Below are positions 46,874-63,126 of a DNA stretch of 64,000 bases, piece after piece. The translations under genes were made by a program, and so were the position numbers. The notes below the pieces were generated by a model. The model was not told where the DNA came from, made no database searches, and saw only the letters and a list, made by a program, of their open reading frames with translations. Source of the DNA: an uncultured Acidobacteriota bacterium (GTDB lineage Bacteria > Acidobacteriota > UBA6911); the NCBI GenBank assembly GCA_963827655.1, contig CAWHCF010000044.1:71242-135241 (forward strand). Direction: 5' to 3'. Within the stretch, counting starts at the first letter, position 1. Each line of letters begins with the position of its first letter.

Positions 46874-48060
46874 ATGGTCCACGCCGTGCTAACGACCAAC
46901 CCGTCATCCCGTACAGCTGAGGCCCCGTCAAAGCGTCGATACCGTGTTCTGGTCTTTTCGGTAATTGCGCTGGTCTTCGGTACTTCGGTTTCCCTGCTCC
47001 TGGCAGAGTTTGCGGTTCGCCTTTTCAATCCTCAAACACTGACGTCGGACGTTGTCGAGTGGGATCCCGACGTCGACTACCGCTTGCGGCCGAACGCGCG
47101 GGGGCGGATGGTCTCGCCGGAATTCTCGGCAGAAATCCGCGTGAATTCTCTGGGATTTCGGGGTCCGGAAATCTCTCCGGTGAAGAAACCGGGGGTTCGC
47201 AGGGTTCTGTTCCTGGGCGATTCCTTCATGTTCGGGGCCGGACTCAAGGAGCACGAAACGCTACCCTATGCGGTCAGCCGCGAGTTGGAGCGGAGACACG
47301 CCGGCGATTTTGAGGCCATCAATGGCGGGCGTATACGGCTACCAAACCGCCAATGAGTTAGAATTCTTCACGAAGTTCGGAGTTCCACTCCACCCCGATA
47401 TTGTCGTGATTCTGGTCATGACCCACGACATGGTTCAGAACACAGACTGGTATGAGTGGACCGGCGACGGGCAGCTGAAGAGAAGACCCTTTACCAGCCA
47501 ATACACGCAAAGCCGGGCTATAACGCGTTATTTGCCCGGGGCTTCCTGGCTCCGAGAACATAGCCACCTGTTCAAATTCGTCGGCACGAGGGTTCTCCCA
47601 ACAGTCACTGCGGGCGAAAACCCTAAATCGGAACTCGCCGGTGGTTCCCCGCGAGCCAAGCCCGCAACCGGTCAAACACGACCAATTCTCGCCTGAGTTC
47701 TACCAGGAGGAGAGCGGGGCTTTTCGGGTTACCACCGAGTTGCTGGCCAGGCTTGTCGACGTCTGCAAGGAGAACGGCGCCAAGTGCATTCTCTTGACAC
47801 TTGGGGGGACAGCGGACGAAAACATGGCGGGAGGGCTTTCGCCCAGGGAAATGCTGCCGCACGAGCAGCTGATTGCAGCCGGATTCAAAGTGGGCTTTTC
47901 GGACGCCCTGGCCCTGCCTACGATTCTCGCCGGTTACAGGGGAAATGAAAATCTGTTCTTCCCGAAGGATCTCCATTGGACGGCGCACAGCGACGAGTTT
48001 CGTCGCTCCCGCGGTTGCGGACGCAATCCTCCGGGTCTCCGGTCAGGATCATCCATGAAC
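46874..48060 (+). pseudogene. SGNH-fold hydrolase/acyltransferase paralog 3 (paralog of 28457..29749), in frame with the upstream ligase and broken by at least 3 frameshifts
   Basis: RVLFLGDSFMFGAGL (block I) in ORF 46124..47356. The next frame has GVYGYQTANELEFFTKFGVPLHPDIVVILVMTHD (compare paralog 2 NFGVSGYDTQQEIEFFKAKGIKYRPDIVVVVYVMND). Then DLHWTAH and VAPAVADAILRVSG (DxxH block) lie in two further frames. Confidence 0.55.
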
Positions 48061-48064
48061 AGCG

Positions 48065-49104
48065 GTGCCTGTTGTTTCGATTGTTATCCCATGCCGGAAC
48101 GAGGCGGAGCATATCGGAACCTGTGTACGATCGCTCCTGGCGCAGGACTTCCCTGCCGCGCAGCTCGAGGTGATCGTCGCCGACGGCATGTCCGAGGATG
48201 GAACGCGCGACGTGGTAGGACGGCTCTCGCAGGAAGACGCGCGCGTCACGATGGTCGAAAACCAGGGCCGCATCGTCTCAACCGGCTTGAATGCCGCTAT
48301 TGGCGCAGCTCGCGGCCGGATCGTTATCCGCGCGGATGCGCATACCGAGTATGCTGCCTGACTATGTGAGCCAGTGCGTGGCTGTCCTCCGGGAGACCGG
48401 CGCCGACAACGTAGGCGGACCCTGGGTGGCTAAAGGGAAGGGTCTGATGGGTCGGGCGATTGCAGCCGCATTTCAGTCGAGCTTTGCCGTGGGCGGAGCT
48501 CGCGGGCACGACGCCAATTATGAAGGAAGCCTCGACACGGTCTATCTCGGATGCTGGCCTCGCGAGGTCTTCGACCGGATCGGTCTCTTTGACGAAGAAC
48601 TGGTCCGCAACCAGGACGATGAATTCAACCTGCGTCTGGCCAGGGCCGGGGGCAAGATCTGGCAATCACCCCGCATAAGGAGCTGGTACACCCCGCGCGG
48701 GTCGCTGGCAGAGCTGTTCCGCCAGCAGATGCAGTATGGATACTGGAAAGTCCGGGTCATCCAGAAGCACCGGATGCCCGCCTCAATCCGGCACCTGATT
48801 CCGGCGTTGTTTGTGATGTCGGTGTTCCTGCTTCCAGTCTTATTCCCCTGGTCGGCTCTTGCGGGTTGGACCTGGCTTGCATTGGCAGGAACTTATTCCG
48901 ATTTCTAACATTGCAGCTTCAACGATGGCGGCTGCGCGGCATGGGTGGGACCTCCTTCCTCTCCTTCCTCCCGTGTTCGCCTGCTACCATTTCGGCTATG
49001 GCTGGGGCTTCCTGCGGGGAATCTGGGATTTCGCGATTGTTCGGCGCGGACCCGGGTTCAGCCAGACCAAACTGACGCGTCGACTGCACACGTCCCGCGG
49101 GTGA
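48065..49104 (+). pseudogene. Family 2 glycosyltransferase with C-terminal TM/HxGYGWGF motif, split over three frames (48065..48361, 48291..48908, 48859..49104)
   Basis: VSIVIPCRNEAEHIGTCVRSLLAQDFPAAQLEVIVADGMSEDGT (GT2 N-terminus). Continues in ORF 48291..48908, then CYHFGYGWGFLRGIWDF. Breaks near 48355 and 48900. Confidence 0.6.
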
Positions 49105-49130: not shown

Positions 49131-50034
49131 TGAAAGTCCAGGAAACCGAGCTGAGAGTGCCGGGGCTGGAAGCAGCTGCCGCCCGGCACGCAAGCCGGAC
49201 CCGATATTCCGCCCATCCGCATCGAAGCGCGCCAAGGTTGGGTATCGCTCAAGCTGCGTGAGGTCTGGGAGTATCGCGAGCTGTTGTTTTTCCTCACCTG
49301 GCGAAACATCCAGGTACGATACAAGCAAACGGCGCTGGGCGTGACCTGGGCCATCATCCAGCCTCTCTTCACGATGGCGGTGTTCAGCCTGTTTTTCGGC
49401 CGGCTGGCCAAGGTCCCGTCCGATGGCATTCCTTATCCGATCTTTGCCTTCGCCGCCCTGGTGCCGTGGACGTTCTTTTCCAACGGATTGAGCCAGTCCT
49501 CCAACAGCCTGGTGGGCAACTCCAATCTGATAAAGAAGGTGTACTTTCCTCGCCTCACTATCCCGGTATCCACGGTGCTCTCAGGGGTGGTGGATTTCAT
49601 GCTGGCATTCGTCATGGTGCTGGGGATGATGTTCTACTACCGCATCGTACCCACGGCCAATGTGCTCTGGATTCCACTGTTGCTGCTGCTCGCGCTGGTG
49701 ACCTCCCTCGGTGTCGGGCTATGGCTGTCGGCGCTGAACGTGCAGTACCGCGACGTCCAGCACGCCGTCCCCTTCCTGACCCAGTTCTGGATGTTCAGCA
49801 CGCCTATCGCTTACCCCAGCAGCCTGCTGTCCGAACCCTGGCGCACTATATACGCGACTGAATCCGATGGTCGGCGTGGTGGAAGGCTTCCGGTGGGCGC
49901 TCCTGGGAACCCAACCCGCTCCCGGAGCGATCCTTGTCGCCTCGTCCCTGGTGGCGGTGCTGGTCCTCGTCGGCGGCGCGTTTTATTTCCGCCGCATGGA
50001 AAAGACCTTTGCGGACGTTATTTGAGTCTTCGCG
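49131..50034 (+). pseudogene. wzm: ABC-2 type polysaccharide/O-antigen exporter permease Wzm, with apparent frameshifts at both ends
   Basis: Core ORF 49284..50069 has IRIEARQGWVSLKLREVWEYRELLFFLTWRNIQVRYKQTALGVTW (Wzm signature) and 6 TM. The true C-terminus LNPMVGVVEGFRWALLG...FADVI is in another frame (stop 50032-50034). A candidate ATG at 49131 (MKVQETELRVP) is also out of frame with the core. Confidence 0.65.
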
Positions 50035-50061
50035 CTCAACCATTTCAACGGATCAATAATC

Positions 50062-51333
50062 ATGAGTGATGCTGTTATTCGCATGGAAGGACTGGGAAAG
50101 GTCTTCCGCATCGGCGCCCGGCACGAAGGTTACAAGACGCTGCGCGACACGCTGTCCAATGCCTGCACTGCGCCTTTCCGCCGGATCCGCACGACGCTCC
50201 AGGGTTCGAGAATCAAGCCCTCCAGTGACGAAAACACGATCTGGGCCTTGAAAGACCTCTCGTGCGAGGTGAAGCGCGGGGAGGTGGTAGGAATCATCGG
50301 GCGCAATGGAGCGGGCAAGAGCACGTTGTTGAAAATCCTTTCTCGCATCACGGAGCCGACCGTCGGATTTGCCGAGATTCGCGGCCGAGTGAGGTCGCTG
50401 CTCGAGGTCGGCACCGGCTTTCACCAGGAGCTGACCGGCCGGGAAAACGTCTACCTCAATGGCGCGATCCTGGGCATGAAAAAGTCGGAGACCGACCGAA
50501 AATTCGACGAGATCGTGGCCTTCTCCGAGATAGAAAAGTTCATTGATACGCCCGTGAAGCATTACTCCAGCGGCATGTACCTGCGACTGGCTTTTGCCGT
50601 CGCCGCCCACCTGGAGCCGGAGATTCTGCTGGTGGACGAGGTCCTGGCCGTCGGCGATGCAGCGTTCCGGAACAAGTGCGTGGGGAAAATGGGAGAGGTG
50701 GCGCAGAAAGGGCGAACCGTGATCTTCGTGAGTCACAACATGGGGGTGATTCAGTCTCTTTGCAACACGGGAATCCTCCTGGAAGACGGTAAGATCACTT
50801 TTAAAGGACCGACCCAGCAGGCTGTAACGAAGTATCTCGGATCGGTCGAGCAACTGCGAACCAAGCCGATCGAGACGCGGCAAGATCGCATTGGCGGCAA
50901 TACCTTCAGGTTCAAACGCGTCCAGTTTCTCAATCCTGAAACCATGGCGCCCTGGAGGACCCTGGTCTCGGGTCAACGCGTGATTGTCCGGCTCGAATAT
51001 GAATGCTTATCCAGCCAGACCCTCGAAGATGTTGGGATCGGTATCGCATTTCATACCGCCAACAACATCCACCTCTTTGCCTGCAGGAACCGAGCCGTTG
51101 GAGTAACACTTAAGGTTCACCCGGGAGAGGGTTACACGGATTGCATCATTCCAAAGTGGCCGCTCAAAGCCGGGCGCTACTCCTACCATCTCTATGCCGA
51201 CCGAAGGGATACGCCGCTGGATTACGTCACCGACGCGGGTTCTCTGGATATAGAAGCCAACGACTACTATGGCACGGGGTATCTTCCGGCTCCGGGCCAA
51301 CCCGGAGTTCTGATCGACTATGCCTGGGAATAA
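50062..51333 (+). CDS. wzt: ABC transporter ATP-binding protein Wzt with C-terminal glycan-terminus-binding (Wzt_C) domain
   Basis: Walker A GRNGAGKST, signature YSSGMYLRLAFA, Walker B LLVDEVLAVGD, H-loop VSHNM. A 170-aa C-terminal beta-rich extension is typical of Wzt_C. Intact. Confidence 0.9.
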   Translation: MSDAVIRMEGLGKVFRIGARHEGYKTLRDTLSNACTAPFRRIRTTLQGSRIKPSSDENTIWALKDLSCEVKRGEVVGIIGRNGAGKSTLLKILSRITEPTVGFAEIRGRVRSLLEVGTGFHQELTGRENVYLNGAILGMKKSETDRKFDEIVAFSEIEKFIDTPVKHYSSGMYLRLAFAVAAHLEPEILLVDEVLAVGDAAFRNKCVGKMGEVAQKGRTVIFVSHNMGVIQSLCNTGILLEDGKITFKGPTQQAVTKYLGSVEQLRTKPIETRQDRIGGNTFRFKRVQFLNPETMAPWRTLVSGQRVIVRLEYECLSSQTLEDVGIGIAFHTANNIHLFACRNRAVGVTLKVHPGEGYTDCIIPKWPLKAGRYSYHLYADRRDTPLDYVTDAGSLDIEANDYYGTGYLPAPGQPGVLIDYAWE

Positions 51334-51368: not shown

Positions 51369-52331
51369 ATGCAAGCAGGTTTGAGGAGAGGCGGTCTGAA
51401 AGTAGAAGAGCCGCTTGTCCTCCAAGAAAGAATCCAGGTGCGATCCAGCCAATTCAAGCAGGCGCGAAGCCTGGCGAAAGAGCTGCGGCCCCAGCAATGG
51501 GTCAAGAATCTCTTTGTGCTCGCTCCGCTGCTTTTCTCGCAGAACCTTTTTACGCCAGGCGCCGTCGGACGTGCTCTAACGGCCTTCGTGCTCTTTTGTC
51601 TCGCCAGCAGCTCGGTCTACTTGTTGAACGATATCAGAGACCGCGAACAGGACCGGCTGCACCCGAGAAAGCGACACCGCCCGCTTGCCAGCGGTGAACT
51701 GAGCGTGTCGCTTGCCGCAGGAGTAATGATAGCGCTCTTGCTGTCGGCTCTGGCAGGGGCGTGGATGATTAGCAAGCCGTTGGCTCTCGTGCTTTTGGGC
51801 TACTGGCTGATCAACCTCCTGTACTCCACCTGGCTCAAACACCAGGTTATTCTCGATGTCTTTGCCATTGCCTCCGGTTTCGTTCTCCGCGTGGCTGGTG
51901 GAGGCCTGGCCATTCAGGTGGAAATCAGTCATTGGTTGTTTCTCTGTACCACTCTGCTCGCCCTTTTCCTTGGCTTCAGCAAGCGGCGTCATGAACTCGG
52001 GCTTCTAAAAGCAGGGGCGCAGGCCCATCGAGAGGTGCTGGCGGACTACAATCCTGGCTTTCTCGATATGATGATCGCCATTGTGACCGCGTCCACGGTG
52101 ATGAGCTACGCCCTTTACACGGTCAGCGAGGACACGGTGCGCCGCTTTCACACACACGCGCTCATGCTGACACTGCCCTTCGTGCTCTACGGCATTTTCC
52201 GTTACCTTTATCTGATCCATCATAAAAACGAGGGAGGCGATCCCACGCAAAGCTTGTTGACGGACATCCCGATGCTCGCCAACCTTTGCCTGTGGGCGCT
52301 GACCGCGGGCGTAATTGTATACTGGCGCTGA
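51369..52331 (+). CDS. UbiA-family decaprenyl-phosphate phosphoribosyltransferase-like (DPPR synthase, Rv3806c type)
   Basis: Asp-rich motif NDIRDREQDRLHPRKRHRPLASGE (this NDxxDxxxD plus basic-stretch pattern is the DPPR-synthase subfamily signature), 8-9 TM. Start at 51369; the track ORF begins inside wzt. Confidence 0.75.
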   Translation: MQAGLRRGGLKVEEPLVLQERIQVRSSQFKQARSLAKELRPQQWVKNLFVLAPLLFSQNLFTPGAVGRALTAFVLFCLASSSVYLLNDIRDREQDRLHPRKRHRPLASGELSVSLAAGVMIALLLSALAGAWMISKPLALVLLGYWLINLLYSTWLKHQVILDVFAIASGFVLRVAGGGLAIQVEISHWLFLCTTLLALFLGFSKRRHELGLLKAGAQAHREVLADYNPGFLDMMIAIVTASTVMSYALYTVSEDTVRRFHTHALMLTLPFVLYGIFRYLYLIHHKNEGGDPTQSLLTDIPMLANLCLWALTAGVIVYWR

Positions 52332-52370
52332 GCGTTACTCCCTTTATCGATCGCATTACCAACATCTACT

Positions 52371-54290
52371 ATGAAGCTCGAACAAAAAAGAGTCCTGATT
52401 ACCGCACTCCTGGCGCTCTCCATCGCCATCATTGGATACCTGGCTTACCGGGATATGCTGGGTTATTTCTTCACTGCCCAGGACAGCACCACGTTGATCG
52501 ACACCGGCCGGGTCCGATCCTTTCGAGATGTGCTGCGTATATTCAATGAACCCTTGATGAACGGCACAACTCTCACGAAACTGTCGCTCTTTTATCGCCC
52601 CATCGCGACGCTCTCGTACAGTCTTGACTACTCCATCTGGGGATTAAACCCATTTGGCTATCACTTGACCGATCTGATACTGCACATTCTGGTTTCTCTC
52701 TCTGTTTTCCTGGTCCTGCTCCGCTTGACCGAGGGCAAGCCGGCTGTCGCCTGGCTCGGCGCCGTCATCTTTACCGTTCACCCAATCCTGGTTGAAAGCG
52801 TCCCCGCAATTCCGCGCCGGCACGATACTATTGCAGTGCTATTCCTGCTCGTCTCTCTGTTACTTTTTATCAAGCACCTCTCCGGCCAAAAGCGCCGGCG
52901 AGTTTACCTGTTCGGCTCTCTCGTCTGTTATCTTCTGGCATTGGGCGCCAAGGAGATTGCGGTGATATTTCCCGCGCTGATTCTCGGCTATCTGGTTATC
53001 TTTTCGCCCAACCGAAAGTCAATCTTCGCCCGGATAGGTGGCGCGTTGAAATCGTCACTTCCCTTTCTGGTCGTCACACCGCTATTTCTCGGCTTTAGAG
53101 CTTATATCGTACGCGGAGTTGGAGGATATGATCCCACCCTGGTCCCATCGTCCGACAAGTTAAACTTCTTCACCGGTACGCTCACCGACTATGCGGCGGA
53201 TCTGGTTTATCCGGTATCGTTCGCGGTAACCTTCTTTCAACCCTTTCCGACCTTACTGCAGAGAGTGGGCTCGCAAGTCGCGCTCCTTCTCTTCTTTGTT
53301 CTCCTTTGCCTTTACCGACGGGCGCTTTTCAAAATAATCGGTTACCCCAGACGGCAGGCGCTACGGACGGCAATGATAGGACTGGCAGGCGTTGCGGTTT
53401 TTTGCCTGATCGCAATCCTCGCCTACCCATCCCTCGCCCCTTTTGTCAACGGCGCGATCAAACGAGCTTACCAGGACCAAGGACCTGCCTTTCTGAGCGC
53501 TGCCATGACGAATCGTCATGAGGTTCCGGTCGAAGCTTACTTTTACCGGGCGGGAGAATTACTCAGTTCCGGGTTTTCGAAGTTATTCTTTCTAGCCGCA
53601 ATTTCCTTCGGCATCCTGATTGGCTTTGACAAGCGGGAAAAGATAAAGCGGTTTCTATCCGAATCTCATACCGGGATGACTTTGAGCTTCCTGGTGATCT
53701 GGCTGCTTGTTCCTCTCGGTGTCTACTTGCTAACGTTCACCTTCACTCATCGTTACATGTATCTTTCAGTGATCCCTTTCAGCGGTATTGTGGCAATCCT
53801 GATTTCCCAGTCCGTTGACTCGACCCGATCATTGATCAGAAGGGGCAACTCCAACGGTTTCTCGCTGTCGTTCGCGCTTACGGAGCCCCCCGCCTTCGCT
53901 TTCCTGATGCTCTCGACGGTGACCTTCTCGCTCCTGGCCTATTCGCCTCTGGTACGCACGTACGGCGAGTGGAAGGACAGCGCAGCGATATCATCGACGA
54001 TTCTGCACCGGTTGACTCAGGTTGTGGATGAACTTCCCAATGATGCCGTGGTTGAGGTGTTCAATCTTCCTGAGCGTATTGCTTCGTACGAGACCACGAT
54101 TCCGCACGTCAAGACACCTTCATACCTGGCGGACTACAGCATCAAGTCCTGGTTAGACTTGCATCGTCCGGCTAACAGAATCACCGTTCTGGTCAGCAGT
54201 CGATCGAAGCCCGAGTCCTTTCCCCGGGGGCTAGACCTCGAAGTGAAAAAAGGGGGAAACAAGAAGCGTAGAAGTCACTATCTCATTTGA
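52371..54290 (+). CDS. GT-C fold membrane glycosyltransferase (PMT_2/ArnT-like, polyprenyl-phosphate-sugar dependent)
   Basis: 639 aa, about 12 TM. N-terminal loop motif FYRPIATLSYSLDYSIWGLNPFGYHLTDLILHILVSL matches the GT39/GT83 family signature (D-x-pattern plus NPxxYHL). Large C-terminal periplasmic domain. Confidence 0.7.
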   Translation: MKLEQKRVLITALLALSIAIIGYLAYRDMLGYFFTAQDSTTLIDTGRVRSFRDVLRIFNEPLMNGTTLTKLSLFYRPIATLSYSLDYSIWGLNPFGYHLTDLILHILVSLSVFLVLLRLTEGKPAVAWLGAVIFTVHPILVESVPAIPRRHDTIAVLFLLVSLLLFIKHLSGQKRRRVYLFGSLVCYLLALGAKEIAVIFPALILGYLVIFSPNRKSIFARIGGALKSSLPFLVVTPLFLGFRAYIVRGVGGYDPTLVPSSDKLNFFTGTLTDYAADLVYPVSFAVTFFQPFPTLLQRVGSQVALLLFFVLLCLYRRALFKIIGYPRRQALRTAMIGLAGVAVFCLIAILAYPSLAPFVNGAIKRAYQDQGPAFLSAAMTNRHEVPVEAYFYRAGELLSSGFSKLFFLAAISFGILIGFDKREKIKRFLSESHTGMTLSFLVIWLLVPLGVYLLTFTFTHRYMYLSVIPFSGIVAILISQSVDSTRSLIRRGNSNGFSLSFALTEPPAFAFLMLSTVTFSLLAYSPLVRTYGEWKDSAAISSTILHRLTQVVDELPNDAVVEVFNLPERIASYETTIPHVKTPSYLADYSIKSWLDLHRPANRITVLVSSRSKPESFPRGLDLEVKKGGNKKRRSHYLI

Positions 54291-54497
54291 GGGCAATACC
54301 TCAAAAAACGTCGAAAAGGGCTTCATTTCAAAGAATTAGATGCGATTGCTTAAAAGCTGAGTGGCGGTCACCGATTTTTACTCAGCGTGCCGCAACAAAA
54401 CCGGCCTTTGCGCATCTTCGCAGCAGTTGGAGCGTTAGGACCAAAGACTGCCGCCGAGACTCTAAGCAACACGAAGAAAAAAGGAGAGTTTGAACCG

Positions 54498-55115
54498 ATG
54501 AAGGAAAACGTCGTGTGCGAAGCTAAACAACTTGCGGCTGACTATCTTCAAGCCTTCGAGAAGCTCCTGCATCGAGTGGATCTGGATGCCGTCGAAAGGA
54601 TTGTCGATCTTTTGCGCGCGGCCCGTGACAGAGCGGGAACGATATATGTCGCCGGGAATGGCGGCAGCGCCGCCACCGCTTCTCACTGGGTCAACGATCT
54701 GGGAAAAGCGACCAAATGCGAGGGCCGGAGGCCGATGCGAGTCATGAGCCTCAGCGACAACATCTCATGGTTGACCGCGCTGGCGAACGACGAGGGGTAC
54801 GAACGGGTCTTTTCAGGGCAGATGGAAAACTTTGCTCAACCTGGCGATGTTCTGATTGTGATTTCGGCAAGCGGGAATTCGCCCAATCTGCTCAGGGCCG
54901 TCGAGCTAGCCCGCGCGCGCGGCGTCGTGACCATAGGGATGCTGGGTTTCGATGGCGGTGCGTTAAAGGATCAGGTGGATGACTGCCTGTGGCTGCCGAC
55001 CGAGCGGGGAGCCTATGGCCTGGTGGAGAGCGGTCATTCACTGCTTTGCCACGTCCTGACGACCTGTCTGGTACAAGACCGGACGGAAACGAGCACACTC
55101 GAGCTAACCACGTGA
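54498..55115 (+). CDS. gmhA: Sedoheptulose-7-phosphate isomerase (SIS domain)
   Basis: GTIYVAGNGGSAATASHWVNDL ... VLIVISASGNSPN, the GmhA SIS pattern. AAGGAGAG SD before the ATG at 54498. Confidence 0.85.
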   Translation: MKENVVCEAKQLAADYLQAFEKLLHRVDLDAVERIVDLLRAARDRAGTIYVAGNGGSAATASHWVNDLGKATKCEGRRPMRVMSLSDNISWLTALANDEGYERVFSGQMENFAQPGDVLIVISASGNSPNLLRAVELARARGVVTIGMLGFDGGALKDQVDDCLWLPTERGAYGLVESGHSLLCHVLTTCLVQDRTETSTLELTT

Positions 55116-56314
55116 GATCCGCGTTACAACGTCCCACTCAAGCAGTGATCCTGGCTGGCGGCCGGGGGACGCGTCTGGGCAACCTGACTGCGGCCCGACC
55201 AAAGCCTATGGTGGAAATCCACGGTAAGCCCTTCCTGTCTTACCAGATCGAACAGCTCAGGGATCAAGGCTTCAAACGTATTCTGTTATTGCTGGGGTAT
55301 CTGCCCGAGGTCGTTCAAGACTACTGCGGTGACGGCAGCCGGTGGGGCGTGAAGGTCGAGTATTCTGTTTCTGCTGTCGAGGATGATACCGGACGCCGGC
55401 TCAAGCTGGCCGCACCTCATCTCGACTCACACTTCCTCTTGCTCTATTGCGACAACTATTGGCCGATGCAAATGGAACGCATGTGGCAGAGGTTCACCGC
55501 GGCTGACGTCCCGGCCATGATAACGGTGTACAGCAACAAGGATGGTTACACCCGCAACAGCGTTCGGGTAGATGACGAAGGATATGTGGTTGCATACGAT
55601 AAGACCTGCGCAAGCGCCGGCCTGGCGGGCGTAGAGATCAGCTACGCGATACTCAACCGGTCCGTTGTCGACCTGCTCCCCGAGACGAATGTGTCGCTCG
55701 AGGAGACTTTATATCCCCTGCTGGTCCAGCGCCGCGAGTTACTGGGCTATGTGACCGACCATCGTTACTACAGCATAGGCGCGCAGCACCGGCTGCCGCT
55801 CACCGAGAGCTTCCTGGCGCGGCGGCCCGCCGTGATTCTCGATCGCGACGGCGTCTTGAACAAGCGGCCGCCGAAGGCACAGTATGTCCGGGCATGGGGG
55901 GAATTCGAATGGCTCCCGGGTGCCAGGGAAGCGCTGCGCCTTTTTAACCAGGCTCGATACCAGGTGATCGTGGTTTCCAATCAGGCCGGCGTCGGCCGTG
56001 GAGCCATGACCGAGTCCGACTTGCGGCAGATCCATGAGAGGATGGCGGTTGAGGTAGAGGACGCCGGGGGAAGGATTGATGCCCTCTATTACTGCCCGCA
56101 CGACTGGAATTTCGGTTGTGAGTGCCGCAAGCCAAAACCGGGGCTCCTTTTTCAAGCCCAGCGCGAACTCAGTCTCGATCTGACCCGGACGCTTTTCATC
56201 GGTGACGACGAGCGCGACGCGCAAGCCGCCGCAGCCGCGGGCTGTCCTTCGGCGCTGGTATCACCCGAGGAATCTTTAATCGACATTACACGCAAGGTGA
56301 TAAGCAATGCATGA
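55112..56314 (+). CDS. Bifunctional D-glycero-alpha-D-manno-heptose-1-phosphate guanylyltransferase (HddC-like) / D,D-heptose-1,7-bisphosphate phosphatase (GmhB, HAD)
   Basis: N-terminal nucleotidyltransferase AVILAGGRGTRLGNLTAARPKPMV. C-terminal HAD phosphatase VILDRDGVLN ... CECRKPKPGLL ... FIGDDERD. GTG start overlapping the gmhA stop (GTGA). Confidence 0.8.
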   Translation: MRSALQRPTQAVILAGGRGTRLGNLTAARPKPMVEIHGKPFLSYQIEQLRDQGFKRILLLLGYLPEVVQDYCGDGSRWGVKVEYSVSAVEDDTGRRLKLAAPHLDSHFLLLYCDNYWPMQMERMWQRFTAADVPAMITVYSNKDGYTRNSVRVDDEGYVVAYDKTCASAGLAGVEISYAILNRSVVDLLPETNVSLEETLYPLLVQRRELLGYVTDHRYYSIGAQHRLPLTESFLARRPAVILDRDGVLNKRPPKAQYVRAWGEFEWLPGAREALRLFNQARYQVIVVSNQAGVGRGAMTESDLRQIHERMAVEVEDAGGRIDALYYCPHDWNFGCECRKPKPGLLFQAQRELSLDLTRTLFIGDDERDAQAAAAAGCPSALVSPEESLIDITRKVISNA

Positions 56315-57386
56315 CAACATGAAAACTGAAACTCCGATCAAGCGTCTTCTGGTGACAGGGCACAACGGATACGTCGGCTCAGTCATGGCGCCGCACTTGC
56401 TGCAGTCGGGATACGAGGTAGTCGGCCTGGATACGGGCTATTTCGGGCAGTGCACGTTCGTGCCCGACGTAGCGAACATCCCGGTGGTGCGTAAAGACAT
56501 TCGAGAACTGGAGTCCTCAGACCTGGAAGGATTCGACGCCGTGGTTCATCTGGCGGCTCTGAGCAACGACCCGATCGGCAATCTCGACGCCGGCTGGACG
56601 GATGACATTAATTTTCGAGCTTCCGTGCGCCTGGCTCAACTCGCCAGGGCGGCGGGGGTGCGACGCTTCCTGTTTTCTTCCTCGTGCATCATGTACGGTA
56701 TGGCGGATGCGTCGACCGTGACCGAGGATTCTCCGCTTGCGCCGCAGACCGAGTACGCACGTTCCAAGGTCAAGAGCGAGCGAGCCCTCAGCGAACTGGC
56801 ACAGGAAGGGTTTTCGCCTGTTTTTCTGCGCAACGGCACTATCTATGGCGTATCGCCTCGAATGCGCTTCGACACGGTTTTCAATGACCTCGTGGGATCG
56901 GCGGTGACCACAGGTAAGGTCGTGGTATACAGCGACGGCAAGCCCTGGCGGCCGGTGCTGCACGTCGCGGATGTCGCGCGCGCCTTCGAAGCGGTCCTCA
57001 AAGCGCCCACCGCGGCGGTCCACAACCAGGCATTTAACGTCGGCGCCAATCATCTAAATCATCAGATTATTGAGCTGGCCGAGATTGCCGTCGCGACCGT
57101 GCCCGGCTGCCGGCTGGAGGTATTGGCTCAGCCCGGCGCCGATCAGCGCACCTATAAAACCGACTTCGGCAAGTTTGCCAGGGTGATTCCCGGTTTTGAG
57201 TTCCAATGGACCGCGCGAACCGGGGCTCAACAGCTCTACGACGCATTCAAGACAGCCGGGCTGGTACGCGACACTTTCGTTGACAAGCGGTTCACACGGC
57301 TGAAGTGGTTGCGCCATCTGTTGGACACGGGACAGCTCGACGCCAATCTGCGATGGAAAAACGGCGCACGAGGAGAGCAGCAATGA
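56307..57386 (+). CDS. NAD-dependent epimerase/dehydratase (SDR) acting on the nucleotide-heptose
   Basis: LLVTGHNGYVGSVMAPHL (Rossmann), YARSK catalytic YxxxK. Confidence 0.8.
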   Translation: MHDNMKTETPIKRLLVTGHNGYVGSVMAPHLLQSGYEVVGLDTGYFGQCTFVPDVANIPVVRKDIRELESSDLEGFDAVVHLAALSNDPIGNLDAGWTDDINFRASVRLAQLARAAGVRRFLFSSSCIMYGMADASTVTEDSPLAPQTEYARSKVKSERALSELAQEGFSPVFLRNGTIYGVSPRMRFDTVFNDLVGSAVTTGKVVVYSDGKPWRPVLHVADVARAFEAVLKAPTAAVHNQAFNVGANHLNHQIIELAEIAVATVPGCRLEVLAQPGADQRTYKTDFGKFARVIPGFEFQWTARTGAQQLYDAFKTAGLVRDTFVDKRFTRLKWLRHLLDTGQLDANLRWKNGARGEQQ

Positions 57387-57832
57387 TTGATGGAGTGAAG
57401 ATCGTTCCTTTGCGGCAGATCGTCGACGAACGTGGGAAGATCATGCATATGCTGAAGGCGACCGACCCTCATTTCCTCGGCTTTGGCGAAATCTATTTCT
57501 CGTGCGCGTGGCCGGGTACGATCAAGGCCTGGCATATCCATCAGACGATGACGGTAAATAACGCCGTTCTTTCCGGCCGAGCCAAGCTGGTGATGTATGA
57601 CCTGCGCAAGAATTCGGCTACGCAGGGCAAACTTCAGGAGGTCTTCCTGGGCGAGGATAACTACTGCCTGGTCCAGATTCCCCCGGGTATTGCCAACGGA
57701 TACAAAGCCTATGGAGACAAGATGGTGATCCTGGCCAACTGCGGCACCGAGGCGCACGATCCCAAAGAGATGCTGCGGCTCGATCCCTTTACCCCGGAAA
57801 TACCGTATGATTGGGCGGTCAAACATGGCTAA
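57383..57832 (+). CDS. RmlC-like cupin (dTDP-4-dehydrorhamnose 3,5-epimerase-related, short form) sugar epimerase/isomerase
   Basis: DERGKIMHM ... FGEIYFS ... IKAWHIHQ ... NAVLSGRAKLVMYD ... IPPGIANGY, the RmlC-type pattern. ATGA overlap with the upstream gene; AGGAGAG SD. Confidence 0.65.
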   Translation: MIDGVKIVPLRQIVDERGKIMHMLKATDPHFLGFGEIYFSCAWPGTIKAWHIHQTMTVNNAVLSGRAKLVMYDLRKNSATQGKLQEVFLGEDNYCLVQIPPGIANGYKAYGDKMVILANCGTEAHDPKEMLRLDPFTPEIPYDWAVKHG

Positions 57833-58842
57833 GAGCCCAAGATTCTCGACTCCCAGACTGGTGGTTTCCAGCACACCCTTGCGAGTGAGCTTCGCGGGCG
57901 GCGGAACCGACCTGGCAGCGTTCTACGAACACGAGCGCGGTGCGGTGTTCAGCACTGCCATCAACAAATACATCTACGTGACCGTGAAGCGGCACGGAGA
58001 GGTATTCAACGAGCGCATTCGTCTGAACTACTCCAGGAGCGAGCAGGTTCAGGGTGTCGACGAGATCGAGAACAACATTGCGCGCGAGTGCCTGAGGTTC
58101 CTTCAAGTCGAACCGCCCCTCTACATCAGCACGGTCGGGGATCTGCCGGCCTCGACAGGATTGGGCGGGTCCAGCAGTTTTGCGGTCGGCTTGCTGAACG
58201 CGCTGCATGCCTTTCGCGGCGAACGTGTGTCCGCCGGACAGCTTGCCGAGGAAGCCTCCTACATCGAGATTGACGTACTCAAGGAGCCTATCGGCAAACA
58301 AGATCAGTATGCGGCGGCCTTCGGCGGCTTGAACCTGTTCTGTTTCAAACCCGAACGGCGCCGTGACCGTCGAGCCGCACCGGCTGAACAATGGCGCGCT
58401 GGCCGCCCTGTTTGAGCAGATGATGATGTTCTGGACCGGGCACCAGAGGGATTCGAGCTCGGTCCTGGCGGAACAGAGAGCGAATACCGCTCAAAAGATG
58501 GACTCGCTGAGAATGCTGCGCGATCACGCCTACCACCTGCAGGGAATTCTGAGCAACGGCCATAGCAATTTGCAGGCGCTAGGGCAGATTCTCGACCAGG
58601 GTTGGGAGCTGAAACGCGGTCTGGCAAGTACGATTACAACTAACCAAATTGATAACTGGTACCGTCTGGCGCGTGAGGCGGGCGCCCTCGGAGGAAAGCT
58701 TTGCGGCGCGGGCGGCGGAGGCTTCCTGCTCTTCGTCGTGCCTGAGGAGGCTCAGGACACCGTACGCAAGGCGTTGACTACCCTGAAGGAAGTGCCTGTG
58801 GGTCCTGCGGCGCACGGGTCTCAAATTCTGTTCGTGGAATAA
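57825..58842 (+). CDS. hddA: D-glycero-alpha-D-manno-heptose 7-phosphate kinase (GHMP kinase), with an apparent frameshift near 58340-58360
   Basis: PLRVSFAGGGTDL and PASTGLGGSSSFAVGLLNAL (GHMP motifs) in ORF 57807..58415. Continuation NGAVTVEPHRLNNG ... KLCGAGGGGFLLFVV in ORF 58363..58842. Confidence 0.75.
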
Positions 58843-62403: not shown

Positions 62404-63126
62404 ATGGCAGACTTCACCAATCAGATAGCGGTTGTAACGGGCGCCAGCAGCGGCGTCGGCAGGGCCATTGCCCTTGCCCTCGCCGAGCAGGGGGCTACCG
62501 TCTGCCTTGTGGGGCGCAAGCTGGAAGCGCTTCAATCGGTTTCAGGCAGCGCCGGTTCCTCTCGCTTTTTCAGTTATCAGGCCGATCTCACGAACGACGA
62601 GGAAATCCATGAACTGGCGGCGCGCCTGCAGCGAGACGTCGGCTTTATCGACCTGCTGGTTCACAGCGCGGGCGTTATCGCGTTGGGACCGATCGAAGAG
62701 GCTCCGGTCGAAGACTTCGATCGCCAGTACCGCACTAATGTGCGCGGCCCTTACGTCCTTACCCAGGCACTGCTGCCTATGTTCCGCGGATCTCGAGGCG
62801 AGGTTGTATTTGTCAATTCCAGTATCGGTCTGAGCGCCAGAGCCGGCACGGGACAGTACGCGGCAACCAAGCTCGCGCTCAAGGCCATCGCGGACAGCCT
62901 GCGCGCGGAAGTAAACGCGGATGGGCGGCGGGTACTCAGCGTATTTCTTGGACGAACCGCGACTCCGATGCAGCAGACTATTCACGATCGGGAAGGCCGG
63001 GACTATCATCCGGAGCTGCTGCTTCAGCCGGAAGACGTGGCCGCCGTGGTGTTGAACGCCGTCAGCTTGCCGCGGACCGCCGAAGTTACCGACATTAATA
63101 TCAGGCCGATGATCAAGACGGCCTAG
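62404..63126 (+). CDS. SDR-family oxidoreductase (classical short-chain dehydrogenase)
   Basis: VVTGASSGVGRAIA (TGxxxGxG), NSSIG ... YAATK (YxxxK). Confidence 0.9.
   Translation: MADFTNQIAVVTGASSGVGRAIALALAEQGATVCLVGRKLEALQSVSGSAGSSRFFSYQADLTNDEEIHELAARLQRDVGFIDLLVHSAGVIALGPIEEAPVEDFDRQYRTNVRGPYVLTQALLPMFRGSRGEVVFVNSSIGLSARAGTGQYAATKLALKAIADSLRAEVNADGRRVLSVFLGRTATPMQQTIHDREGRDYHPELLLQPEDVAAVVLNAVSLPRTAEVTDINIRPMIKTA

Follow-up and report, generated by a model that had tools for sequence, protein, structure and literature searches.

A predicted polyprenyl-phosphate phosphoribosyltransferase and GT-C glycosyltransferase pair at a Wzm/Wzt glycan locus of an uncultured acidobacterium

Described systems of extracytoplasmic sugar transfer

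In O-antigen glucosylation in the periplasm by GtrA/GtrB/GtrC and in lipid A modification by ArnC/ArnE-F/ArnT, a sugar is first attached to polyprenyl monophosphate inside, and after flipping the product serves a GT-C glycosyltransferase outside as donor. The same order of events is proposed for the locus described here, but its donor synthase is predicted to be a PRPP-dependent enzyme of the UbiA fold, whereas those of the Gtr and Arn systems are GT2 enzymes using nucleotide sugars. The mycobacterial decaprenyl-phospho-arabinose pathway comprises Rv3806c, Rv3807c, DprE1/DprE2, Rv3789 and the Emb/Aft GT-Cs. Its first enzyme is homologous over the full length to that of the present locus, with the PRPP and Mg contacts conserved, and in that pathway, too, a GT-C uses a lipid-linked pentofuranose outside the membrane, as would be the case here. 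Unlike in mycobacteria, however, the proposed role is decoration rather than polymer synthesis. The closest described system is the three-component system of Citrobacter youngae O1/O2, in which ORF15 is a polyprenyl-phosphate 5-phosphoribosyltransferase (PPPRS), ORF14 a transporter and ORF12 a GT-C of family GT136 (Kelly et al., 2024; PMC11127046). The PPPRS and the GT-C are encoded downstream of wzm/wzt in this bacterium and were experimentally shown to add alpha-ribofuranose to the O antigen (PMC11127046).

The pair described here is rather likely to be a minimal form of this extracytoplasmic side-chain system (Kelly et al., 2024), adding pentofuranose to the glycan exported by Wzm/Wzt. As in C. 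youngae, the PPPRS is of the Rv3806c type and shares the N-D-x-x-D-x-x-x-D loop, its GT-C partner has about 650 amino acids and a small extramembrane domain at the C-terminus, the two genes come last in a wzm/wzt glycan locus whose Wzt carries a carbohydrate-binding module (CBM), and DprE1/E2 were not found. In contrast to C. youngae, the PPPRS is without the fused HAD phosphoribose-phosphatase domain, the locus has no gene for a small EmrE/ArnE-like transporter, the GT-C probably belongs to a different family, and the bacterium belongs to the Acidobacteriota. In the proposed mechanism, the UbiA-type enzyme would act on the cytoplasmic face and move ribofuranose-5-phosphate from PRPP onto the cell's polyprenyl phosphate. 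The 5-phosphate would then be taken off by a phosphatase and the lipid-linked beta-D-ribofuranose flipped by a transporter, and in the periplasm the GT-C would attach a pentofuranose to the exported glycan as a side residue.

The gene string and its phosphoribosyltransferase

The locus lies on the + strand of the window, that is, the whole stretch of 64,000 nucleotides analysed from an uncultured soil bacterium of the Acidobacteriota. Wzm, the ABC-2 permease of the polysaccharide exporter, is encoded at 49284-50069 (PF01061, 69.5 bits, with a weak match to galactan/KpsM permeases), and Wzt, the ABC ATPase with a Wzt_C glycan-cap-binding domain, at 50062-51333 (PF00005, PF14524). The stop codon of wzt is separated by 36 nt from the start of the PPPRS gene, whose own stop is 39 nt from the start of the GT-C gene in the same strand and frame. 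No terminator-like site was found on the + strand from wzt to the GT-C gene, and wzm, wzt and the genes for the PPPRS and the GT-C form one co-directional, operon-like gene string. In one soil metatranscriptome, RNA contigs match parts of each gene of the pair, the junction between the two being unbridged and DNA carry-over being possible.

The PPPRS gene runs from an ATG at 51369, with GAGG 8-11 nt upstream, to a stop at 52331, and its 320 codons equal in length those of homologues 83-95% identical. Judged from its sequence, this UbiA-superfamily protein is a member of the decaprenyl/polyprenyl-phosphate 5-phosphoribosyltransferase subfamily. It scores 322.5 bits on NF008977 (cut-off 234) and 246 bits on NF008978 (cut-off 207), but 41 bits on the heme O synthase model and 28 bits on the UbiA model, and it can be aligned with Rv3806c (8J8J) over the full length (residues 34-317, E 2.6e-42). 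The motif that had led a sequence-only reading of this DNA to the same assignment is present at residues 87-110. The protein keeps the N-D-x-x-D-x-x-x-D loop, and most of the residues in contact with PRPP are conserved (K46, Y84, N87, D88, D91, D95 and Y152). When the contacts K28, Y70, N73, D77, Q135 and Y138 of Rv3806c were compared, the single change was that of Q135 to N149. The residues required in C. youngae ORF15, N247, D248, D251 and D255 (PMC11127046), all have equivalents. Phylogeny, which had been named as one check of the assignment, agrees with it: the protein falls in a 100/100 clade with PPPRS genes adjoining DprE1/E2-like or PAP2 genes, far from the heme O synthase and the MqnP-like prenyltransferase of the same genome, both of which lie outside this clade. 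The enzyme very probably attaches ribose phosphate to a lipid carrier in the membrane.

The GT-C gene and its extra base

The next gene starts at 52371 and, as assembled, ends at 54290, encoding 639 amino acids with about 12-13 transmembrane segments. This end, which had been taken at face value, is due to a single extra base at 54264 that truncates the C-terminal domain. Homologues 76-98% identical continue for 16 residues past the assembled stop in a frame comparison, and the base is absent from all covering contigs of three soil or rhizosphere metagenomes from three studies (runs X1, X2 and X4). The true end of the gene is therefore 54341, giving a protein of about 655 amino acids, and the extra base arose either in assembly or as an indel of this strain.

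The product is a GT-C glycosyltransferase as judged from its modelled fold and from PF13231/PF02366 (PMT_2/PMT) matches in a few homologues, some homologues also carrying TPR repeats. The AF2 model (pLDDT 88.6, pTM 0.89) matches STT3, Pmt4, AglB and ArnT over 330-420 residues with VIA Z-scores of 22.6, 21.4, 20.8 and 19.4, respectively, in contrast to 12-16 for the mycobacterial Emb/Aft enzymes and less than 6 for unrelated entries. In the first extracytoplasmic loop, at residues 28-96, 42 homologues show little or no variation at D38, D53 and D86. The placing of a GT-C directly after the UbiA gene stands on the fold, but the PMT_2/ArnT label attached to it finds no support in the sequence of this protein, which gave no match above the gathering score of that family (PF13231, GT83). 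Pfam and NCBIfam gave no match, Pfam at E<=1 returning noise only; a profile of the family alignment (A1) found no solved GT-C among PDB sequences, and a protein Atlas search returned unnamed clusters only, mostly acidobacterial. The enzyme appears not to be of the GT136 type. An indirect indication is that C. youngae ORF12, with catalytic residues D31, E34, H106 and R349, is described as EpsG-like, whereas the rare Pfam matches in relatives of the present GT-C are to PMT_2/PMT. As an outward-facing membrane transferase, the GT-C probably adds lipid-carried ribose to the exported polysaccharide.

Sugar, acceptor and distribution

A periplasmic decoration with a ribose- or arabinose-derived pentofuranose had been suggested. 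The decoration accords with the role established for the C. youngae pairs (PMC11127046), but the arabinose branch has found no support. The genome, with a completeness of about 90% and with indel errors in its sequence, has no DprE1 over the cut-off of 500 bits for NF053785 (best score 54), and BLAST with one comparator, a DprE2-like protein of Bacteroidota, revealed no recognisable DprE2. Nor was a PAP2 phosphatase homologue found in it, a further difference from the mycobacterial pathway. The PPPRS-linked FAD oxidase and SDR of a Bacteroidota plasmid gave only 45-bit matches in tblastn. An ALO/FAD protein on contig C2 was rejected as DprE1, being of the sugar-lactone-oxidase type (20 bits on NF053785) in an unrelated neighbourhood. 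The SDR at 62404, put forward earlier as a weak DprE2 candidate, turned out to be a generic SDR of family NF006073 with no similarity to DprE2-like or PPPRS-linked SDRs, to which latter the SDRs of the window are unrelated. As the module includes no epimerase of its own, the residue added is most likely alpha-ribofuranose and not arabinofuranose.

It is unlikely, though conceivable, that the same module carries an epimer, xylo- or arabinofuranose, made by epimerases elsewhere in the genome. A second PPPRS, 42% identical to that of the window, is encoded on contig C8 (G000:C8:22960-23805) without a GT-C and is flanked by a metallophosphoesterase, possibly the 5-phosphatase, and by two extended SDRs of the Epimerase family, one of which is 36-40% identical to SDRs that adjoin a PPPRS gene in one locus of Omnitrophota and one of haloarchaea. 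Indeed, a single SDR in C. youngae O2 turns the ribose donor into xylose and the GT-C takes both (PMC11127046). However, the C8 locus has its own PPPRS, lies on a different contig and has nothing tying it to the window locus, and the genome is without a canonical DprE1.

The acceptor was thought to receive a terminal or side-chain modification beside the Wzm/Wzt exporter, and of these a side chain fits better. Recognition of a glycan cap by the C-terminal domain of Wzt is cytoplasmic and the GT-C acts after export, so that a terminal cap read by Wzt is unlikely. There is a similarly small chance that the two enzymes are coupled but act on a protein, on lipid A/core or on another envelope polymer, their place after wzt being incidental. 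Pilin arabinosylation is performed by TfpW-type GT-Cs. The top fold matches STT3, PMT and AglB are protein-glycosylating, TPR repeats occur in the family as mentioned above, and with several glycan routes in the window (Wza/Wzc, Wzy-like and Wzm/Wzt) the target is unreadable from position alone. The GT-C(A) Z-scores, however, are so nearly tied (19-22.6) that they do not discriminate between acceptors, and both the tight gaps to wzt and the precedent of C. youngae with the same layout argue for the Wzm/Wzt glycan.

More improbable still is that the adjacency means nothing, the GT-C using another polyprenyl-phosphate sugar and the PPPRS product feeding other GT-Cs or a non-glycan role. Most members of the GT-C family lack a nearby PPPRS: it was seen in 3 of 159 fetched loci of GT-C relatives, many of them short-flanked or matching the N-terminal half only, although the alignment scans of genome and metagenome contigs behind this count reached distant relatives only (<=49% identical, many over the N-terminal half), from which a pairing rate of close orthologues is not measurable. 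A full-length GT-C orthologue was found in none of 401 sampled acidobacterial genomes, 233 of which have a PPPRS; donor specificity within the family is therefore clearly not uniform. At least three paralogues are present in the genome (C2:20675, C9:52545 and C22:291788), and in Acidobacteriota PPPRS genes are also common elsewhere, frequently close to ccmF or with DUF362 next. Large membrane proteins near these genes in other acidobacteria were rejected as GT-Cs, being CcmF, Wzx-like flippases or permeases. Against a meaningless adjacency, the PPPRS/GT-C junction is bridged by independent soil metagenome contigs (X1 records 2-3), and contigs of X2 and X4 run from ubiA through a variant spacer into the GT-C start codon. 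It also seems to recur in diverged homologue pairs. The closest homologues of the two proteins come from the same source with an equal longest contig (114902 for P0007/P0128, 15579 for P0018/P0135 and 2995 for P0084/P0166), adjacency in these pairs resting on that coincidence only, and a PPPRS adjoins more distant GT-C relatives in L019, L028, L098 and L195. In addition, no membrane-anchored GT2 of the GtrB/ArnC type occurs in the scanned parts of the window, where the GT2 products of 33931 and 34846 lack transmembrane segments and a broken gene at 47641-48908 belongs to the processive GT2 type.

For the steps between the two enzymes of the proposed side-chain pathway, the genome offers few leads. 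A PRP-type HAD phosphatase domain was found nowhere in it, NF006088 matching in the UbiA part only. Besides the metallophosphoesterase on C8, a GmhB-like HAD domain at 54989-56314 is a candidate for the 5-phosphatase. No small multi-TM reading frame that might encode a flippase adjoins the pair, no homologue of a Marivivens EamA protein was found in the genome, and its sole GtrA homologue is on contig C52, away from the locus. As no 5-phosphatase or epimerase is recognisable with the pair, it might instead be a self-sufficient two-gene cassette whose uncharacterised, non-GT136 GT-C family, recognised by fold only, transfers ribofuranose-5-phosphate itself to give an anionic phosphoribosyl side group on the surface polysaccharide, a modification not met in the literature examined and a very improbable one.

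The PPPRS/GT-C pair is a further example of a pathway type first described in 2024, not a new kind of system, and opens no new mechanistic question. It takes the pathway for pentofuranose side chains into the Acidobacteriota, a phylum that is abundant in soil, poorly represented in culture and hardly studied as to its surface glycans. Evidently the pathway can take the form of just a PPPRS and a GT-C, the latter of a family unannotated in sequence libraries. Soil and rhizosphere metagenomes of 16 studies contain near-identical copies, and therefore the modification may be common on the surfaces of soil bacteria.

A phosphoribosyltransferase and a GT-C enzyme behind wzt

In a gene string whose upstream part holds wzm (49284-50069), the plus strand encodes Wzt with its Wzt_C domain (50062-51333), a UbiA-superfamily protein of 320 aa (51369-52331) and a polytopic membrane protein of 639 aa as assembled (52371-54290). 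Intergenic gaps are 36 nt before the UbiA gene and 39 nt after it, and no terminator-like site was found on this strand from wzt to the end of the last gene. The UbiA gene and its neighbour share one reading frame, and 52332-52370 between them amounts to a single TGA plus 13 codons. A GDP-heptose operon starts about 200 nt further on, its ATG at 54499 preceded by a strong Shine-Dalgarno sequence.

The UbiA protein scores 322.5 bits on the decaprenyl-phosphate phosphoribosyltransferase model NF008977 (cut-off 234) and at most 51 bits on every aromatic, quinone or heme prenyltransferase model. Its residues 34-317 align with the Rv3806c structure 8J8J (E 2.6e-42), the second-best PDB relative being an archaeal UbiA (E 2.6e-6). 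The PRPP/Mg contacts of Rv3806c, K28, Y70, N73, D77, Q135 and Y138 (PMC10994848), correspond in this alignment to K46, Y84, N87, D91, N149 and Y152, with a single Gln-to-Asn change at Q135/N149. In ORF15, the polyprenyl-phosphate 5-phosphoribosyltransferase (PPPRS) of C. youngae, mutation of the N, D, D and D of N-D-x-x-D-x-x-x-D abolished or severely cut activity (PMC11127046), and all four residues are kept here, at 87, 88, 91 and 95. Separate genes of the same genome encode heme O synthase and a prenyltransferase of MqnP/UbiA-like type. Maximum-likelihood analysis places the window protein far from both housekeeping enzymes, in a clade (100/100 support) of PPPRS genes, among them one adjoining a DprE1/E2-like gene pair and one adjoining a PAP2 gene. 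A grouping with quinone or heme prenyltransferases is thus rejected, and the earlier assignment to the DPPR-synthase type stands.

The downstream neighbour has no match in Pfam or NCBIfam, and a 42-sequence profile of its family found no solved protein by sequence. The AlphaFold2 model built from that alignment is confident (pLDDT 88.6, pTM 0.89), and every significant Foldseek match is a GT-C enzyme. VIA-align gave Z-scores of 22.6 with yeast STT3, 21.4 with Pmt4, 20.8 with AglB and 19.4 with ArnT, 12-16 with mycobacterial Emb/Aft arabinosyltransferases and below 6 with unrelated chains; the GT-C identity proposed by the sequence-only reading is thus borne out. The catalytic base of GT-C enzymes sits in the first loop after TM1. 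Here this loop (residues 28-96) contains the acidic residues D38, D53 and D86, which are strictly or almost strictly conserved in the family, and D38 is the putative base. PF13231 or PF02366 is detected in a small number of homologues, and fusions to TPR repeats also occur. Three paralogues are found elsewhere in the genome (C2:20675-21586, C9:52545-53063 and C22:291788-292639; open frames of 608-655 aa), none on a contig region with a PPPRS.

Homologues of 76-98% identity exceed the window version by 16 residues: the reading frames part after '...KKGGNK', and the window encodes the C-terminus of the homologues in a different frame, with a stop at 54339-54341. Metagenome contigs from soil or rhizosphere, belonging to three runs of three different studies, consistently lack the base at 54264. 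Therefore the window carries a one-base insertion, an assembly error or a strain-specific indel, near the 3′ end of the gene, and the true protein has about 655 aa. What look like further frame breaks occur in the heptose operon, where an RmlC-like cupin ORF (dTDP_sugar_isom; 57305-57832) overlaps the end of an SDR gene and the start of an HddA-like kinase ORF (57807-58415) truncated to only 202 aa.

Distribution of the gene pair

Metagenome contigs of run X1 span the UbiA stop through the GT-C start. Related strains in X2 and X4 have a different spacer of 10 nt directly ahead of the GT-C gene, and their contigs extend from ubiA across it into the start codon. In all, 20 runs from 16 studies contain near-identical sequence. 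Circumstantial evidence of adjacency also comes from the top homologues of both proteins, which three times share source and longest-contig size (P0007/P0128, 114902; P0018/P0135, 15579; P0084/P0166, 2995). In the tree, the window PPPRS shares a well-supported sub-clade (97/99) with precisely the environmental homologues that seem to have the GT-C gene on their contigs. Our reading is that the two genes form a cassette inserted behind wzt.

More diverged relatives of the GT-C occur close to a PPPRS in an Omnitrophota MAG (L019), a haloarchaeon (L028), a metagenome contig (L098) and another acidobacterium (L195). A PPPRS is within reach in only 3 of the 159 fetched loci of GT-C relatives, which counts against a universal link. 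Among 401 sampled acidobacterial genomes, 233 have a PPPRS (170 above the cut-off) and none was found to have a full-length orthologue of the window GT-C; these tallies include the unpublished G046, G083 and G201, and no claim is based on those three alone.

In other acidobacteria PPPRS genes have other settings: close to ccmF, ahead of a DUF362 gene, or ahead of a Wzx-like flippase gene. The CcmF cytochrome c maturation gene is about 1.7-4.2 kb from the PPPRS in four genomes (L184, L188, L194, L195). This suggests that the ordinary acidobacterial PPPRS holds a conserved core-genome position, the window copy lying instead in a variable glycan locus. In the metagenome contig (L098:7743-11926) and an acidobacterium (L195:7535-13340), PPPRS is followed by a DUF362 protein (~403 aa) and a window-family GT-C. 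In two acidobacterial genomes (L177:1293-3591, L179:8053-10330) it directly precedes a Wzx-like MOP flippase (Polysacc_synt_3, ~270 bits), possibly an alternative transporter of lipid-linked pentose. Halocatena pleomorpha (L028:9983-15602) combines a window-family GT-C, an LPG_synthase_TM (MprF flippase-like) protein, a PHP-domain phosphoesterase, PPPRS and an Epimerase-family SDR, which would be a full candidate archaeal set of transferase, flippase, phosphatase, donor synthase and epimerase.

The predicted sugar and the accessory steps

In C. youngae O1/O2, three proteins encoded after wzm/wzt-dependent O-antigen genes, namely a PPPRS, a transporter of small size and a GT136 GT-C, add α-Ribf in the periplasm, and a system with one SDR adds Xylf instead (Kelly et al. 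2024, PMC11127046). Candidate pentofuranose systems are widespread, their GT-Cs mostly annotated as hypothetical proteins (PMC11127046). The window locus, with PPPRS and GT-C after wzm/wzt, is predicted to work in the same way and is a further example of this recently described type; the first proposal, periplasmic pentofuranose decoration, is essentially right. The locus is without two accessory parts of the C. youngae system, and its GT-C probably belongs to another GT-C family. In the literature searched, GT136 is mentioned only by its founding paper, and for acidobacterial glycans no pentofuranose side-chain system of this kind came up. What is added here is an acidobacterial host, a minimal two-gene layout, a GT-C family recognised by fold only, and ribose, not arabinose, as the likely sugar.

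DprE1 and DprE2 are required for canonical arabinose formation. In the window's genome the best score on the DprE1 model is 54 bits (cut-off 500), and the PPPRS-linked FAD oxidase and SDR of a Flammeovirgaceae plasmid retrieved nothing above 45 bits. SDRs that accompany PPPRS (L019, L028 and a second locus of this genome, on contig C8) are 36-51% identical to one another; the window SDRs at 56307 and 62404 are unrelated to them and fit the surrounding heptose-tailoring genes, and the proposal of the SDR at 62404 as a DprE-type epimerase is not supported. Neither PPPRS of the genome has a DUF362 gene nearby. Therefore, of the ribose or arabinose-derived residue first envisaged, unmodified ribofuranose is the simplest prediction and arabinose is disfavoured, although absence of the epimerases is not proven because the genome is only ~90% complete. 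An inverting GT-C, the rule in almost every case surveyed by Kelly et al. (PMC11127046), would give an alpha linkage.

For the phosphatase and flippase steps, no HAD phosphoribose-phosphatase domain and no homologue of the PAP2 or EamA-type proteins of a Marivivens PPPRS locus was found across the genome, and the pair has no small multi-TM ORF beside it. Candidates in trans are a metallophosphoesterase on C8, a GmhB-like HAD domain two genes downstream and a lone GtrA on C52. The second PPPRS, within C8:20900-26000 (L006:7989-12972), scores 244 bits on NF008977, is 42% identical to the window's and lies in a minus-strand string with the metallophosphoesterase, a NagA-like deacetylase and two Epimerase-family SDRs, with no GT-C. 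One of these SDRs is 36-40% identical to those beside PPPRS in the Omnitrophota MAG (L019) and the haloarchaeon (L028), and this group is a candidate for a lipid-linked pentose epimerase.
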